60,472 bases of DNA, from NCBI GenBank assembly GCA_947036575.1, contig CAMQSH010000001.1, forward strand, positions 1-60,472. The letters run 5' to 3'. The position numbers were made by a program, and so were the translations under genes. The stretch's first letter is position 1, and each line of letters opens with the position of its first letter. Positions 31,978 to 38,142 of the stretch are shown in pieces. The stretch comes from an uncultured Brevinema sp. Its GTDB lineage: Bacteria; Spirochaetota; Brevinematia; Brevinematales; Brevinemataceae. The notes below the pieces were generated by a model. The model saw only the letters and a program-made list of their open reading frames with translations. It searched no databases and was not told the origin of the DNA.

Positions 31978-32616
31978 CTAGTGATGAGCTTTTATCATAT
32001 GTTTTTTTAATATATAAATAATAGTAGAATAAAAAGCCGTATCCTTAGGCAATCTTTCTAATAAGATGAGTGCATCGTTCTCCGTTATATTATCAATATC
32101 TGTATAGATTTTTATAACTTCTTTTCTTTTGTCTTTTAATTTTTTATCATTCAAATTTAATTTATTTATACTTGCCCAAGCTTTTTGATTTGAAGGATCT
32201 GATCTAATTTCTCCAGTCAAAGAGTACGTAAAATTTTTAGCACAATGTGGATCTAGTGGAGATATAAAACCATAAGCAGGATCATAATTTTTTTTATGTT
32301 TTCCACAATGATCTAATTTTGTTCCATCTATTCTATCTCCCCCACAAGACATAACAATATTATTATAATGATAAGATTTGTCTTGATAAGTACTTCTTGG
32401 ATAAATATGTTCAATATGACTTAAACTGATACCATTTTTATTCTCACCCTCAGGCAATTCATCCTCACAGTAAGCACAGAGATAGGACTGTTCTTCTTTT
32501 AATATATCTTTCACACTATTTTTTAAATGATTCTTTAAATTATCCCAAACACCTGTATGCTGTTGAAATTGTTGTATAATAGGATCTAAAAGTTTTGTTT
32601 TTTTAATATATTTCAT
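31978..32616 (-). CDS. ptuB: HNH endonuclease, Septu PtuB-like
   Basis: CAYCE ... HIEHIYPRS ... NNIVMSCGG ... HCGKHK (HNH/zinc motifs). 212 aa. Starts 3 nt after the ATPase stop. Confidence 0.65.
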   Translation of the reverse strand: MKYIKKTKLLDPIIQQFQQHTGVWDNLKNHLKNSVKDILKEEQSYLCAYCEDELPEGENKNGISLSHIEHIYPRSTYQDKSYHYNNIVMSCGGDRIDGTKLDHCGKHKKNYDPAYGFISPLDPHCAKNFTYSLTGEIRSDPSNQKAWASINKLNLNDKKLKDKRKEVIKIYTDIDNITENDALILLERLPKDTAFYSTIIYILKKHMIKAHH

Positions 32617-32619
32617 TGG

Positions 32620-33885
32620 TTATTTTCCCAAGATTTCTATTCTTTTAACCCACGCGTTTAACTTGGTTATTTCAGTATCATTACCTATTTTTTCTTTGAG
32701 TATCTTTATTGCTTGTTTGGCTTTATCTACTTTTTTATCATCTAACAAAGTATATATATTTTTGATTTGATCTTCTATTTCAAAATCTCTTTTTGATGAA
32801 TCCATAATATATTCTAAAATTTGATCACTCGTTTTACCATACATCACATGTTCTAATTGTAGTGGCTTAATATTATTTGTTTCACTAAGTTCTTGTTGGT
32901 TCAAAATAAATACAGAACAATTAGAAATACTAGAAATTACTTGAGGGGAATGGGTTGTAACAATAAATTGACAATTTGGAAATATTTCTACTAATTTTGG
33001 TAATATTTCTCTTTGCCATTTTGGGTGTAAATGCAATGCAATTTCATCAATGAAAATAACTCCTTTACCTTTTAATGGATCTAACAAGCTATGATTTAAC
33101 ATTGTTAACCTTCGTGCTATATCCCCTATTAAAGCTATATAAAGTTTTTCTCCTTGAGATAATAATTCCATATCTAACTCGGAAACAGTCCCATCATATA
33201 ATTTTTTTGTTAGTAATAATAGATGTGGGTGTCCTCTTTGTAATTTGATAAAATGAAATCCTGTGAATTTTTGAATAGCTGCTTTAACTGGTTGTAAACT
33301 ATCAACTAATATTCCCGTTTCTCGTAATTTTTCATTAATAATATCATCTTGATTACGATACCATTCGAAAAAAAGACGAAAATCAGTTTTACCTGTCAAA
33401 CAATTATCATAAGCATTTATTCTACTAAACTCATTTTTAATTGTTACATTTATAGGCATCATCATAACAGCTCTTTCAGCACGATAATAGGCTATTAGTG
33501 GTAAATCAATAGTATCATTATCATCATAGAGTTTTTCTATATTATTATTTTTTTGCTCTGAAAAATTTTGCTTATAATGAGTAGGCTTATTTTTTATTAT
33601 TGAATAATCAACAGTACAATCTGCTGATAATTTGTACATATCACTAGAAAACACAATCCCAATATTACAAGAACGTTCATTTTTACGAATGTCTGTTTTT
33701 TTATTAAAAACAATTTGTTTTTGAGGAAAAGGAAGTGCTCTATTCAACAACAAAGCACAAGCATCAAGAATAGACGTTTTACCAACACCATTATTTCCAA
33801 TAATAATATTCATTTGAGGATGAAATTGTATCTTACAACTTGCTATGCCACGAAAATTTTTTAGGGTTACATCCTTCAATATCAC
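32620..33885 (-). CDS. ptuA: AAA/ABC-like ATPase, Septu PtuA-like
   Basis: Walker A GNNGVGKTS, signature-like LSQGEK, Walker B VIFIDEIALHLHP, TTHSP. GTG start with a GGGAG RBS. Confidence 0.65.
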   Translation of the reverse strand: MILKDVTLKNFRGIASCKIQFHPQMNIIIGNNGVGKTSILDACALLLNRALPFPQKQIVFNKKTDIRKNERSCNIGIVFSSDMYKLSADCTVDYSIIKNKPTHYKQNFSEQKNNNIEKLYDDNDTIDLPLIAYYRAERAVMMMPINVTIKNEFSRINAYDNCLTGKTDFRLFFEWYRNQDDIINEKLRETGILVDSLQPVKAAIQKFTGFHFIKLQRGHPHLLLLTKKLYDGTVSELDMELLSQGEKLYIALIGDIARRLTMLNHSLLDPLKGKGVIFIDEIALHLHPKWQREILPKLVEIFPNCQFIVTTHSPQVISSISNCSVFILNQQELSETNNIKPLQLEHVMYGKTSDQILEYIMDSSKRDFEIEDQIKNIYTLLDDKKVDKAKQAIKILKEKIGNDTEITKLNAWVKRIEILGK

Positions 33886-34601: not shown

Positions 34602-35063
34602 CTAATTTTCTCCTAAGATAATTGTATTATTAATATTTATGTCGGTTTGTGTACTAGAAAAACTATACTATCATCACTATAAAAACGTGCTTTCTAACTT
34701 ACTATATTGTTATTTTTATCTAGTAAATTATTTTATAATTATCTTAAAATCCATAAAAAACATATGAGTTCTGTATATATTTTTTTTATTTGTTGATTAG
34801 ATTTTTTGCTTATTTTATTTGTTTTTATCCAGTAAGACGTATTTAGTATGATTCCATATAAAACTAATATTATAGAATCTATTAGTTTTGGTATGATATA
34901 AAAGATAGGAAGAATCATCATCACAAAATGATATTTTATTAGAATAGATATTTACCCCTATTATATTAAGTATCTATATCTCCCCCAATACTAATTATCT
35001 TTAATATTATATCATTTGCACTTTAAAAATGCAATACTATTTCACTATATAATAAACAATTTA

Positions 35064-35092
35064 TTGACAAAAGATTATTCCTATGATATAAT
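35064..35092 (+). promoter_or_regulatory. perfect sigma70 consensus promoter TTGACA-17-TATAAT
   Basis: -35 at 35064-35069 and -10 at 35087-35092. The predicted +1 is near G35099. Confidence 0.75.
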
Positions 35093-35098
35093 AAAAGT

Positions 35099-35331
35099 GC
35101 TTACATTTTAGGATCTTTTATAGATCTCTTTTATTTCTATCTTAGATTTATTAAAGATAGAGGTTTTCTGTGTAGAAAATCTCTTTTTATTTTAAATCTA
35201 AGAAGTGTGTCTCCATATTTGTTTTTATAACTACTTCTATCTAAATTCATATTAATTGCTCATAGCAGTTTGTGTATTTTTACGGAAGTAGTTATAAATA
35301 GAAATATTTAGATCTTTCCTAAAATGTAAGC
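35099..35331 (+). ncRNA. structured RNA of unknown class (~233 nt, Y-shaped, 5' and 3' ends paired)
   Basis: A 15-bp perfect closing helix (35099-35113 / 35317-35331) starts at the predicted +1. There are further helices and two capped arms. G.U pairs fit only the + strand. No ORF. Confidence 0.6.
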
Positions 35332-35586
35332 AATACAAACTCTATGGGCTTTTTTAGTGATATAGGGATTAGCGTAGCACGACTAATAGCTTACTGCATT
35401 TAGAGAACGTAGAAATAATTTGTTAAGTAAAATCTCTTAGACAAAAAACAATATAGAAGATCTTATGCTCTAGAATATGGGACGCCATACCTTAAGTATA
35501 TAGACTCTATATACGTTATATTAAATTAATATCACAAAATAATATATAGTAGTGTATAAAGAATATACAGTACAAGGAGTATATAA

Positions 35587-36006
35587 ATGAAAAAAATTCT
35601 TATTTTAGGATTAATTTTTGCAGCTGTAGGATGTTCTAATGAACCAGAGCTAAATATGGACGAGATCAACAAAGCTGCTGCCTTAGCAATGCTAAAAGGA
35701 TCTTACAAAACAACTGTGAATACTCCTATTATTTCAGAAGTGTTTATAACTATAGGAACAGATGTCACTATTGATACTTTAAATTTTTCTATAACAGCAA
35801 CAGATGTTGCAAACAATCTTAGCTTTGAATACCTAGAAGTAAAAGAAGGTTGGGTTGTTTATAAAGTTACCTTTAATAGTAAAACCAAATATACAGCTTT
35901 AGGAACTGGTAACGGTTTTATTATAACAGAATCTATGGACTTCAGAGATAGTCAAGATGCTCTTACTTTTCCAGAAGAAGGAAGACCATTTCTTAAAAAA
36001 CAGTAA
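35587..36006 (+). CDS. lipoprotein, unknown function (copy 1)
   Basis: Lipobox AAVGCS, AGGAG RBS. Paralog of 36273..36746. Confidence 0.7.
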   Translation: MKKILILGLIFAAVGCSNEPELNMDEINKAAALAMLKGSYKTTVNTPIISEVFITIGTDVTIDTLNFSITATDVANNLSFEYLEVKEGWVVYKVTFNSKTKYTALGTGNGFIITESMDFRDSQDALTFPEEGRPFLKKQ

Positions 36007-36026
36007 TTAATTACTAATTTACTAAT

Positions 36027-36061
36027 TAAAAAAGCCTCTATTAATTTAGAGGCTTTTTTTA
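36027..36061. terminator. bidirectional terminator (copy 1)
   Basis: AGCCTCTA / TAGAGGCT stem with an A-run and a T-run. Confidence 0.75.
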
Positions 36062-36062
36062 T

Positions 36063-36165
36063 CTATATTTTATCCATAGTAGCAATAAAGAGATTATATA
36101 ATTCATCATATTCTTCTTTTTCACCAAGATCTGCTAACATCTTGTCTAGTTTGTTAATACTATCT
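36063..36165 (-). pseudogene. duplicated 3'-terminal fragment of the cyclase-like gene
   Basis: Near-identical to 36802-36905. Encodes ...SINKLDKMLADLGEKEEYDELYNLFIATMDKI* with no upstream part. Confidence 0.8.
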
Positions 36166-36205
36166 AATAATTTTTACCAAATTGAGATTTTTTATTTCAA
36201 TCTAT

Positions 36206-36234
36206 TTGACATGTTAATCCGATTATATTATACT
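36206..36234 (+). promoter_or_regulatory. sigma70-type promoter TTGACA-17-TATACT
   Basis: Lies in the duplication junction, upstream of lipoprotein copy 2. Confidence 0.6.
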
Positions 36235-36272
36235 ATATTATACAAAAGGTGTACACTACAAGGGGTATATAA

Positions 36273-36746
36273 ATGAAAAAAATTCTTATTTTAGGATTAA
36301 TTTTTGTAGCTGCAGGATGTTCTAATGAACCGCAACTAAACAAAAAGTCGCAACTAGATGAAAAGCCTCAACTAGATGCGGACGAGATCAATCAAGCTGT
36401 TGCCCTAGAAATGCTAAAAGGATCTTACAAAACAATCGAACTTACTGGTTTTATTTCGAAAGTGGATATAACTATAGGAACAGATGTCACTATTGATACT
36501 TTAAATTTTTCTATAACAGCAACAGATGTTGCAGACAATCTTAGCTTTGAGTACCTAGATATAAAGGGAAAATGGGTTGTTTATAAAGTTACCTTTAATA
36601 GTGAAACCAAATATACAGCTTTAGGAGCAGGAAAGAGTCGTGATGGTACCGAAAGTTTTATGCTAATAGAATCTTCTACATTCCGAGATAGCCCAGATGC
36701 TGTTACTTTTCCAGAACAAGGCATCACATTCCTTGATAAACCATAA
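36273..36746 (+). CDS. lipoprotein, unknown function (copy 2, with inserted KSQLDEKPQLD segment)
   Basis: Lipobox AAAGCS. Long identical blocks with copy 1 (TIGTDVTIDTLNFSITATDVA.NLSFEYL). Confidence 0.7.
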   Translation: MKKILILGLIFVAAGCSNEPQLNKKSQLDEKPQLDADEINQAVALEMLKGSYKTIELTGFISKVDITIGTDVTIDTLNFSITATDVADNLSFEYLDIKGKWVVYKVTFNSETKYTALGAGKSRDGTESFMLIESSTFRDSPDAVTFPEQGITFLDKP

Positions 36747-36765
36747 TTAATTACTATTTTATAAT

Positions 36766-36801
36766 TAAAAAAGCCTCTATTAATTTAGAGGCTTTTTTTA
36801 T
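36766..36801. terminator. bidirectional terminator (copy 2) shared by convergent genes
   Basis: Same AGCCTCTA / TAGAGGCT hairpin. Confidence 0.75.
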
Positions 36802-37605
36802 CTATATTTTATCCATAGTAGCAATAAAGAGATTATATAATTCATCATATTCTTCTTTTTCACCAAGATCTGCTAACATCTTGTCTAGTTTGTTGATACT
36901 ATCTATTTTTTTATATTTAATATTATCTATTATCGCAGACTCCATATGCTCATCATAATCAAATACAATATTTTTCCAATCTCTACAATACCATATAATT
37001 GGATATGCTCTATTATTCCAAACTCCTTTGAGTTTTTCATAGCTCACTATTCTTAAATGTTCTGATATATTACTTTTACATGCATCAGGGCATTGCATTT
37101 TGTACAGTGTGTAGGCTAGTTTGGCACATACTATTATTCTGCCTTTTGTCACATATTTAGTAATCCTAAAGCCAGTGTCAATATCACTCCCTATAAAATC
37201 GAGAGAATCATTAGCACATCCTGTAGATAAAGCCACATTATTATAATTTTTTATGGTCTCATTATATTCAGTAATATCAGCAGCCCATACAGAAGATTTC
37301 GCATAAATAGAATTATCGTCAGATAAAGATTCTTGTATAATAGTTAAAGTATTGTCTATATATTCAAGTATTTTATACATTTCTGTCTTATCTTTTATCA
37401 CTACATAAAATAAAATCTCATCCCCTAAACGCTTCCATACTTTTAGCTCTGAATAAACAAAACAACTCCTCAAATATTCAGCTGATATTAGATAGAAATC
37501 ATGAAATACTTTAGGCCATTTTTTTGGATATTTGTATTTATATGCTGTAGAATCTACTAAATCGATAGATATAAAAACATATAATAACTCTTCTTGTTCT
37601 GCCAT
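36802..37605 (-). CDS. palm-domain nucleotide cyclase-like protein (class III cyclase / GGDEF / mCpol superfamily), orphan
   Basis: Motifs FISIDLVDST, WKRLGDEILF, DFIGSDIDTGFRI. Start moved to the ATG at 37605, 8 nt after AAGGAGG. Confidence 0.55.
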   Translation of the reverse strand: MAEQEELLYVFISIDLVDSTAYKYKYPKKWPKVFHDFYLISAEYLRSCFVYSELKVWKRLGDEILFYVVIKDKTEMYKILEYIDNTLTIIQESLSDDNSIYAKSSVWAADITEYNETIKNYNNVALSTGCANDSLDFIGSDIDTGFRITKYVTKGRIIVCAKLAYTLYKMQCPDACKSNISEHLRIVSYEKLKGVWNNRAYPIIWYCRDWKNIVFDYDEHMESAIIDNIKYKKIDSINKLDKMLADLGEKEEYDELYNLFIATMDKI

Positions 37606-37643
37606 GTCACCCCCCTCCTTTCTATTAAACAACCGTAAGATAT

Positions 37644-37672
37644 ATTATAGTTGATAAAAACATATATATCAA
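37644..37672 (-). promoter_or_regulatory. sigma70-type promoter TTGATA-17-TATAAT
   Basis: Minus strand -35 at 37667-37672 and -10 at 37644-37649, upstream of the cyclase-like gene. Confidence 0.65.
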
Positions 37673-37691
37673 GTGTTTTTTATAGTATATA

Positions 37692-37734
37692 CAACTACTT
37701 AATTATTTATCAAAAAAACTCAACACAGTCTCAA
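37692..37734. repeat. dispersed motif CAAC(T/C)ACTTA..TCAAAAAAACTCAACACA(G/A)TCTCAA, copy 1
   Basis: The second copy is at 59951-59986. Confidence 0.6.
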
Positions 37735-38008
37735 ATAGAAGTTTAATTTCAACTTATCTTATATATGTTTTTATATATTATAGATATTTTGTTTAAAATT
37801 AAAAAAGGATAAACCTTTATATTACAAATTTTTGCCCAAATATTTAGACCTTAAGGTTATTACTTTGATACAGATTTAATATCTATAGAAATTACTTCTA
37901 TTATACCCCTAGAAAATAATACTTAACAAAGAATATAATAGAGGAGAAATAAAATCTTCATTTATTAAAAAATAAATATCTCAAGGCATGATAAGGAAGA
38001 TATATAAC

Positions 38009-38050
38009 AAAAAAAGCTCTCATGTTCCAAATAAGAAACACGAGAGCTTT
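38009..38050 (-). terminator. rho-independent terminator of the mng operon
   Basis: Minus strand AGCTCTCGTG...CATGAGAGCT followed by a T-run. Confidence 0.7.
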
Positions 38051-38142
38051 ACTCTCAATTTTACAGCAGTCTACTCAAAAATATCTGAAATTGTTCTTTA
38101 AAATAGCAAACCAATCTATATTCTATGACATGTTGGTATAAT

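Follow-up and report, generated by a model that had tools for sequence, protein, structure and literature searches.

A stand-alone class III-type cyclase gene of Brevinema, probably a reduced form of a protease-linked, Pycsar-like module

We describe a gene for a 267-amino-acid (aa) protein on the minus strand of a 60,472-nt stretch of DNA (hereafter, the window) from an uncultured Brevinema sp. (contig CAMQSH010000001.1, assembly GCA_947036575.1). An earlier inspection of the bare sequence (hereafter, the sequence-only reading) had described the gene as an orphan whose product resembles the palm-domain nucleotide cyclases of cyclic-nucleotide defense systems. Structure prediction, residue conservation and a survey of relatives lead us to consider it probable, on balance, that the gene encodes an active, stand-alone and very divergent class III cyclase. 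Its origin would be a Pycsar-like module in which the cyclase is coupled to a protease, and the partners have been lost in the Brevinema lineage.

The open reading frame (ORF) listing opens at an upstream TTG (37632), which would give a 276-aa product. We place the start at the ATG at 37605-37603, which is preceded by a Shine-Dalgarno sequence and is the position at which homologs begin; the stop codon is found at 36802-36804. The three motifs described previously, in the order expected for class III nucleotidyl cyclases, are FISIDLVDST (residues 11-20), WKRLGDEILF (residues 57-66) and DFIGSDIDTGFRI (residues 136-148). All three were confirmed as part of a near-invariant family core: among 202 family members, D15, G61, G139, D143, G145, F146 and R147 are conserved in 100%, and D62 in 99.5%. 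Judged by this family-wide conservation, the motifs are non-chance matches. The window protein carries the full invariant set (D15, K23, G61-D62, G139, D143, G145-F146-R147, Y201-P202) and matches the family profile with an E value of 3e-96. Loss of the catalytic Asp residues among homologs, a possibility contemplated in the sequence-only reading, is not seen; both residues are kept, and the cyclase reading therefore survives. The GC content of the gene is not distinguishable from that of its neighbors.

An AlphaFold2 model of the protein, made with an alignment of 38 homologs, has a predicted local distance difference test score (pLDDT) of 92.1 and a predicted template modeling score (pTM) of 0.91. 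When the model was compared with the PDB using Foldseek, the top 50 matches were all adenylyl or guanylyl cyclase domains of class III (E 1e-8 to 6e-7, target-normalized TM-score up to 0.83), and they include Cya2, CyaC, Rv1900c, Ma1120, RhGC and CyaB. In a viral fold library, the best named matches were proteins with a guanylate cyclase domain, while GGDEF proteins appeared only at E 1e-3 or worse. The class III nucleotidyl-cyclase palm fold is thus borne out by both the model and the structural search. In a forced global profile alignment, the F-x-D...T and K-x-x-G-D motifs are collinear with those of class III cyclases, a register without statistical support which nevertheless agrees with the motif assignments made earlier from the sequence. 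An hhalign comparison placed DFxGxDIDxGFR against D-x-W-G-x-x-V-N-x-A-S-R, residue for residue; its small target alignment combined six adenylyl-cyclase domains of mammals, with sequences taken from PDB alignments, and a consensus sequence, and only the motif register is usable. In this register, D136, G139, D143 and R147 align with D-x-x-G-x-x-V-N-x-x-x-R, and the spacing is D-x2-G-x3-D-x3-R, compared with the canonical D-x2-G-x3-N-x3-R.

Residue roles and numbering are taken from established knowledge of class III cyclases. On the model, D15 and D62 are the predicted metal-binding Asp residues. In the motif alignment, K58 and D136 appear to align with the Lys and Asp that specify adenine in adenylyl cyclases, and R147, the Arg of the D-x-x-G-x-x-V-N-x-x-x-R motif, found in 100% of family members, falls at the putative position of the transition-state Arg. 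K193, located in an L-K-G sequence, is probably the late phosphate-binding Lys.

The family is large, and its distribution is wide and patchy. A profile search of 1.84 billion representatives retrieved 2286 clusters (defined at 50% identity) at E<=1e-3, of which 1268 reach E<=1e-30. Members come from Spirochaetota, Bacillota, Proteobacteria, Verrucomicrobiota, Fibrobacterota, Actinomycetota, Patescibacteria and others. A literature search found no description of the family or of the module formed by ImmA, cyclase and Nudix-like domain that is presented below; an earlier in-silico mention is possible.

The sequence-only reading had assigned about 85 aa to a C-terminal extension. The model reduces the part that lies beyond the core to about 60 aa (residues 207-267), which are helical, confidently modeled and conserved across the family. 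In alignments with longer relatives (e.g., P0007-P0009), the window protein stops exactly where a Nudix-like domain starts, and the alignment indicates that the extension is a family-conserved linker between the cyclase and that domain. A C-terminal Nudix-like domain of about 150 aa is present in 124 of 210 family members (59%). The Nudix box R-E-U-x-E-E was compared among 22 fused relatives (L011-L038), where it has degenerated to [E/K/R]-[S/A]-Y-x-[D/E]-D; its critical Glu position is Ser, Ala or Gly in 15 of these 22 proteins, and W-E-F-G-C and Y-x-x-D-F are conserved. An active hydrolase effector is doubtful with such a degenerate box, and the domain may bind nucleotide rather than hydrolyze it. 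When a full-length relative was compared with PADLOC, it matched only the candidate PDC-S07, via its Nudix-like part.

The neighborhood survey gave an unexpected view of the usual partners. The sequence-only reading had asked whether homologs carry an effector of the transmembrane or TIR kind; the family norm is, instead, an upstream ImmA/IrrE metalloprotease together with the fused Nudix-like domain. In 36 of about 48 loci, the cyclase gene is immediately preceded by a co-oriented gene for a Peptidase_M78 protein of about 175 aa (ImmA/IrrE, CapP-like); protease and cyclase genes overlap by 1-47 nt at the cyclase start in five called gene pairs, and protein P0042 is a natural ImmA-cyclase fusion. 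The HExxH motif is retained in 44 of 44 proteases. Their best PADLOC match is capP (E 1e-28 to 1e-29), followed by RmrA (E down to 8e-26); the match covers positions 4-149 of the 242-position capP model, and the C-terminal part is absent. An XRE-type helix-turn-helix or repressor gene was found within 600 bp in just 3 of 47 loci. Gene order thus indicates that the cyclase is the conserved companion of the protease, in place of the XRE repressor. Because the protease gene overlaps the cyclase gene and not a repressor gene, the cyclase is likely to be a substrate or a regulator of the protease. An N-terminal extension of the cyclase, which co-occurs with ImmA, was considered as the ImmA target and rejected, since ImmA also accompanies P0008, P0009 and the P0070 branch, in which the N-terminus is short.

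A membrane protein of the PycTM family adjoins the module in 8 of 46 genome loci (Pfam PF18967 with E 7e-12, above the curated cut-off; PADLOC PycTM models with a best E of 2e-28). The orphan state described by the sequence-only reading is therefore true of the window but not of the family, whose members commonly have a protease and a Nudix-like domain and sometimes PycTM; the likeness to Pycsar is upheld at the family level by the PycTM neighbors, while the proposed likeness to mCpol/Panoptes is not. Recurrent flanks of the relatives are type I and MmeI-type restriction-modification genes, MADS genes, integrases, relaxases and a KAP NTPase. Matches that cover 93% of the cyclase-Nudix protein come from temperate phages of Clostridioides difficile, namely phiC2, phiCD27, CDKM9, phiCDHM19 and phiCD508. 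In phiC2, which is the C. difficile phage whose gene neighborhood was read (L060, 4321-6986), p42 encodes an ImmA-like metalloprotease, p41 the cyclase-Nudix protein and the convergent p40 a PycTM-like protein, and the module sits between a lysis cassette with AbiF and the integrase. The module is also found in Leptospira phage LE1 and in Leptospira plasmids. Altogether, the family looks like a mobile, defense-type module, akin to Pycsar in its logic. One branch has a different setting: in metagenome-assembled genomes (MAGs) of Eremiobacterota/Vulcanimicrobiota (L048, L050, L052; 5977-7109), a short (about 206 aa) and divergent cyclase is encoded directly 3' of groEL, without ImmA, and in L048 it is followed by a stand-alone protein with a cyclic nucleoside monophosphate (cNMP)-binding domain (PF00027, E 1e-18). 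This branch may be a housekeeping offshoot.

The closest relatives of the window protein are encoded in MAGs labeled uncultured Brevinema sp. (82% and 75% identity). ImmA accompanies none of the Brevinema-clade copies, that of the window included. The nearest ImmA-linked relatives, P0008 (60% identity) and P0009 (44%), both have ImmA together with a cyclase-Nudix protein. A different arrangement is found in L003, a Brevinema-like contig (7086-9308), where a stand-alone cyclase (272 aa, 79%) is followed by a cyclase-Nudix fusion (435 aa, 71%) in tandem, on the same strand and with no protease gene. The simplest history is that ImmA was lost, then the cyclase gene was duplicated, and then the Nudix-like domain was lost. 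The stand-alone copies retain every invariant residue, and pairwise ratios of nonsynonymous to synonymous substitution rates (dN/dS) against the Brevinema-clade copies are 0.16-0.37; by these measures, the copies are not decaying but are under purifying selection. They occupy non-syntenic sites, close to GntR/phosphotransferase system (PTS)/GH38 genes in the window, GntR/PTS genes in L057, and TetR and Dak/PTS genes in L055. Two diverged stand-alone copies, P0006 (L055) and P0004 (L057), come from a single metagenome sample (ERZ28620385), on different scaffolds and each by sugar-utilization genes; they are either paralogs of one genome or copies from two co-resident strains. In the window, a complete Septu system is located about 3 kb from the cyclase gene (31978-33885, minus strand), with PtuA at 32620-33885 (E 6e-116) and PtuB at 31978-32616 (E 2e-43).

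The gene is equipped for expression on its own. A near-consensus promoter, TTGATA-17-TATAAT, is present as proposed by the sequence-only reading, with 11 of 12 consensus matches, and is kept in three other Brevinema-clade copies (L009, L055 and L057); in this AT-rich stretch as a whole, promoter-like sites number 19, against an expectation of 20.6, and hence show no enrichment. An inverted repeat overlaps the -35 element and the promoter spacer, and the comparison of the same four copies shows that its 8-nt arms (ACTTGATA-N10-TATCAAGT) are conserved while its 10-nt spacer is variable. Sigma-70 promoter elements do not account for the right arm, and the conserved block has the look of an operator to which a dimeric regulator would bind. 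No gene for such a regulator or for a repressor accompanies the cassette. The run of six G residues (37615-37610) which the sequence-only reading had pointed out as a possible modulator of translation does exist, but it overlaps the GGAGG core of the Shine-Dalgarno sequence and is not conserved. A phase-variable or translational switch was rejected: the run is absent in L009, L055/L010, L057 and L003, and has a constant length in three identical copies.

Downstream of the gene, the earlier description of a bidirectional terminator common to a convergent lipoprotein gene (36273-36746) was confirmed; its hairpin stands between an A-run and a T-run and so can work in both directions. Upstream, the non-coding stretch estimated at about 500 bp is a 510-bp spacer (37633-38142) with no ORF of at least 50 aa. 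A terminator scan indicates that the spacer includes the terminator of the GH38 mannosidase gene (38013-38050), so the cyclase gene is a separate transcription unit. Like every stand-alone Brevinema-clade copy, it is monocistronic.

A number of observations weigh against a class III cyclase with a defense-type past. Pfam, NCBIfam and PADLOC scans of the window protein gave no meaningful match, and Pfam PF00211 none at E<=10; 38 family members likewise lack a PF00211 match. PDB sequence and profile searches matched nothing, and the hhalign comparison with class III domains gave a non-significant E of 0.24. As there is no significant sequence-profile link to class III, the assignment rests on the predicted structure and the motif register. 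The position of the canonical Asn of the transition state, which orients the ribose, is occupied by D143, an Asp that is invariant in the 202 members. On the side of function, the Brevinema-clade copies are found amid housekeeping genes for sugar utilization and not in obvious defense islands, save for the nearby Septu. Most family loci lack PycTM, and the Pycsar analogy may therefore hold for a subset only. With no receptor or effector within the 60 kb of the window, a signaling role would have no visible output. A literature search found no biochemical or phage-challenge data for any family member.

The genomic context invites an explanation which we consider unlikely, namely that the protein is a housekeeping second-messenger cyclase for cAMP/cGMP-type control of carbon metabolism, apart from phage defense. 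Three of four Brevinema-clade contexts are beside GntR/PTS or dihydroxyacetone-kinase sugar loci, K58 and D136 are found at adenine-specifying positions, the L048 branch adjoins GroEL and a stand-alone cNMP-binding protein, and the gene is under purifying selection. The copies are, however, non-syntenic, and two diverged ones are found in one sample, unlike a core regulator; the nearest relatives belong to ImmA-linked modules, the wider family resides on mobile elements and phages, and the window contains no CRP or cNMP-binding gene. Another reading starts from the lack of a separate effector in most family loci: the output may be the cyclase itself, alone or joined to its Nudix-like domain. 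The window protein would then be a self-contained toxic effector that drains nucleoside triphosphates (NTPs) or floods the cell with cNMP, and a repressor acting on the promoter palindrome would silence it in replacement of ImmA. Such an arrangement would fit toxin-antitoxin logic, as the ImmA partner resembles RmrA, the M78-peptidase antitoxin of RosmerTA, and the conserved inverted repeat over the -35 element and the spacer would provide the operator. We nevertheless find it quite improbable: the cassette is not accompanied by a repressor gene, its near-consensus promoter suggests appreciable expression, and an unguarded toxin is unlikely to last as several copies under purifying selection.

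There is little to recommend the view that the protein is a regulatory or partner subunit, either in a heterodimer with a Nudix-fused paralog encoded elsewhere, reminiscent of the C1 and C2 halves of eukaryotic cyclases, or as a decoy. Class III cyclases are obligate dimers, and the co-oriented tandem pair of L003 has its stand-alone member directly before the Nudix-fused one; but both of these paralogs, like the window copy, retain the complete set of catalytic residues, with none of the asymmetric degeneration typical of heterodimers, and the window harbors neither a second copy nor a Nudix-like gene. Least credible, to the point of being almost negligible, is a palm enzyme of the GGDEF, mCpol or Cas10 type that makes cyclic di- or oligonucleotides in a Panoptes-like system. 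The palm fold is common to all these enzymes, and the G-D-E of WKRLGDEILF, which had led the sequence-only reading to mention them, bears a superficial likeness to GGDEF. When the GGDEF motif was tested, just L-G-D-E-I was present, with no match to PF00990; the top 50 PDB matches contain no Cas10, mCpol or GGDEF entry, GGDEF proteins rank far lower in the viral library, PADLOC gives no match, and neither a 2TM-beta effector nor a CARF partner is adjacent. The resemblance did not hold.

We thus return to the stand-alone class III cyclase derived from a protease-coupled module, for which the following mechanism can be proposed. Two copies would pair head to tail, as expected from the class III fold; PycC is also dimeric (PMC11224242). 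Each active site would hold two metal ions on D15 and D62, and K23, K58, D136, R147 and K193 would hold the NTP, with the invariant D143 standing in for the ribose-orienting Asn; the NTP would be converted to 3',5'-cyclic nucleoside monophosphate and pyrophosphate. By the classical rule, the Lys/Asp pair suggests ATP as substrate, while the PycTM association of the relatives points to Pycsar-type messengers; PycC enzymes recognize pyrimidines through other pocket residues (PMC11224242). The ancestral module would have consisted of an ImmA/IrrE protease gene overlapping the start of a cyclase-Nudix fusion gene, with PycTM in a minority of loci. In such a full module, the CapP-like protease would gate the cyclase via cleavage or release, the Nudix-like domain, probably a ligand-binding one, would sense a nucleotide, and PycTM, if present, would carry out the response. 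The Brevinema lineage would have lost the protease, and the window copy the Nudix-like domain too, to leave a single-gene cassette whose palindrome suggests control by a repressor encoded elsewhere. The window cyclase would then be a stand-alone generator of cyclic nucleotide, with an output on an unlinked receiver or via the nucleotide pool. Of this picture, the fold, the conserved residues, the architecture of the family, the partner loss and the selective constraint are observed, whereas catalysis, the product, a role in defense and repressor control are inferred.

A bolder version of this proposal can be put forward as a tentative possibility. The window gene might be the stripped-down end of an undescribed, protease-gated relative of Pycsar in which a CapP-like ImmA is tied directly to a cyclase and not to a repressor, nucleotides are sensed by a degenerate Nudix domain and PycTM is an optional output; its Brevinema form would be repressor-controlled, multi-copy and single-gene, and would either signal to unlinked receptors or act via NTP depletion or a cNMP flood.

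The features discussed are listed in Table 1. As regards the rest of the window, tblastn and purpose-built hidden Markov models detected no gene for or remnant of ImmA, Nudix-like or PycTM proteins, no gene for CRP-like/cNMP-binding proteins and no second copy of the cyclase, and Rfam gave no family at the gathering threshold in positions 1-60472. A tandem duplication of about 740 bp (35539-36915) takes in a lipoprotein gene with its terminator and ~114 nt from the 3' end of the cyclase gene; within it, the direct repeat 36017-36176 = 36756-36915 has 96% identity. An orphan duplicate of the end of the cyclase gene is hence found between two lipoprotein genes. The duplicated lipoproteins are 76-87% identical, whereas terminator and cyclase fragment are 96-100% identical, a pattern which suggests that the lipoproteins diverge rapidly or that the 3' end has undergone gene conversion. 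The roughly 1 kb that separates the first lipoprotein gene from a SatP-like gene (34602-35586) has no ORF above 61 aa and contains two imperfect inverted repeats at 35140-35203 and 35210-35312.

Table 1. Features of the cyclase gene and its surroundings (window positions).
Feature	Position	Strand	Evidence and details
Cyclase coding sequence, 267 aa	36802..37605	-	Stop codon included; ORF and translation, 77 homologs, 2286 representative clusters, dN/dS 0.16-0.37
Cyclase homology (palm) core, residues 6-206	36988..37590	-	AlphaFold2 model, Foldseek, residue conservation, motif register
Helical C-terminal segment, residues 207-267	36805..36987	-	Secondary structure of the model; homolog alignment
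Promoter	37644..37674	-	-35 TTGATA 37672-37667, -10 TATAAT 37649-37644; promoter scan, 11/12 consensus matches
Operator-like inverted repeat in promoter	37649..37674	-	ACTTGATA 37674-37667, 10 nt, TATCAACT 37656-37649
Shine-Dalgarno region AAGGAGGGGGG	37610..37620	-	GGAGG core 37618-37614, 8 nt before the ATG
Bidirectional intrinsic terminator	36767..36798	.	Terminator scan: 13-bp stem, A-run on one side, T-run on the other
Duplicated, orphan 3' end of the cyclase gene (last ~36 codons)	36063..36176	-	Between two lipoprotein genes; tblastn, 94% aa identity, residues 232-267

By analogy, we infer that the window holds the reduced, orphan version of a class III/Pycsar-like cyclase system whose partner is a protease. 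The sensing of infection by Pycsar-type cyclases is not explained in PMC11224242 and PMC13069673. The family described here, which escapes detection by Pfam, NCBIfam and PADLOC, offers a testable activation route that combines cleavage or release by a protease with ligand sensing by a Nudix-like domain. It is thus a good lead on how defense cyclases switch on, and the window copy is its least informative member for that question. The Brevinema orphans are, on the other hand, a natural experiment in which the cyclase core alone has been kept by selection; it follows that the enzyme is of use by itself or that partners are supplied in trans. The family is also present in well-known temperate phages of C. 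difficile and Leptospira under an uninformative annotation, the phage cyclase-Nudix genes being annotated as hypothetical or "putative Nudix hydrolase".

Canonical class III cyclases (CyaC 1WC4, Cya2 2W01, Rv1900c 1YBT) are the best structural matches of the window protein and share with it the collinear series F-x-D...T, K-x-x-G-D, D-x-x-G-x-x-x-[N/D]-x-x-x-R and a late K-G. Identity is, however, only 10-15%, with no significant profile match, and the family differs in its invariant Asp in place of the transition-state Asn, in its own helical C-terminal segment of about 60 aa and in having no sensory N-terminal domain. The relatives share with CapP/CapH, ImmA/ImmR and IrrE/DdrO an M78 metallopeptidase with HExxH as upstream partner, capP being its best PADLOC match. 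In contrast to those pairs, the relatives' protease gene overlaps a cyclase gene, with an XRE repressor in 3 of 47 loci, and the window lacks the protease. RosmerTA, compared here through PADLOC names, consists of the RmrT toxin and the RmrA M78-peptidase antitoxin; it is likewise a two-gene module that joins an M78 peptidase to a variable second protein, and RmrA models match the relatives' proteases. RmrA has, nonetheless, an extra N-terminal region of about 130 residues, and the second gene of our family encodes a cyclase and not RmrT.

Pycsar is defined by a PycC pyrimidine cyclase and a PycTM or PycTIR effector (PMC11224242). The window cyclase departs from it by the lack of any PADLOC match, PycC included, at E<=10, and of a PF00211 match; neither PycTM nor PycTIR is encoded in the window, and most family loci are likewise devoid of both. 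The ImmA/IrrE protease and the Nudix-like domain (59%) of the family are not part of the Pycsar descriptions in PMC11224242 and PMC13069673. The likeness is, in turn, that the window protein too is a class III-type cyclase of one domain in which two catalytic Asp residues are conserved, that PycTM stands beside 8 of 46 relatives and in phiC2, and that the relatives are found near defense genes and on prophages.

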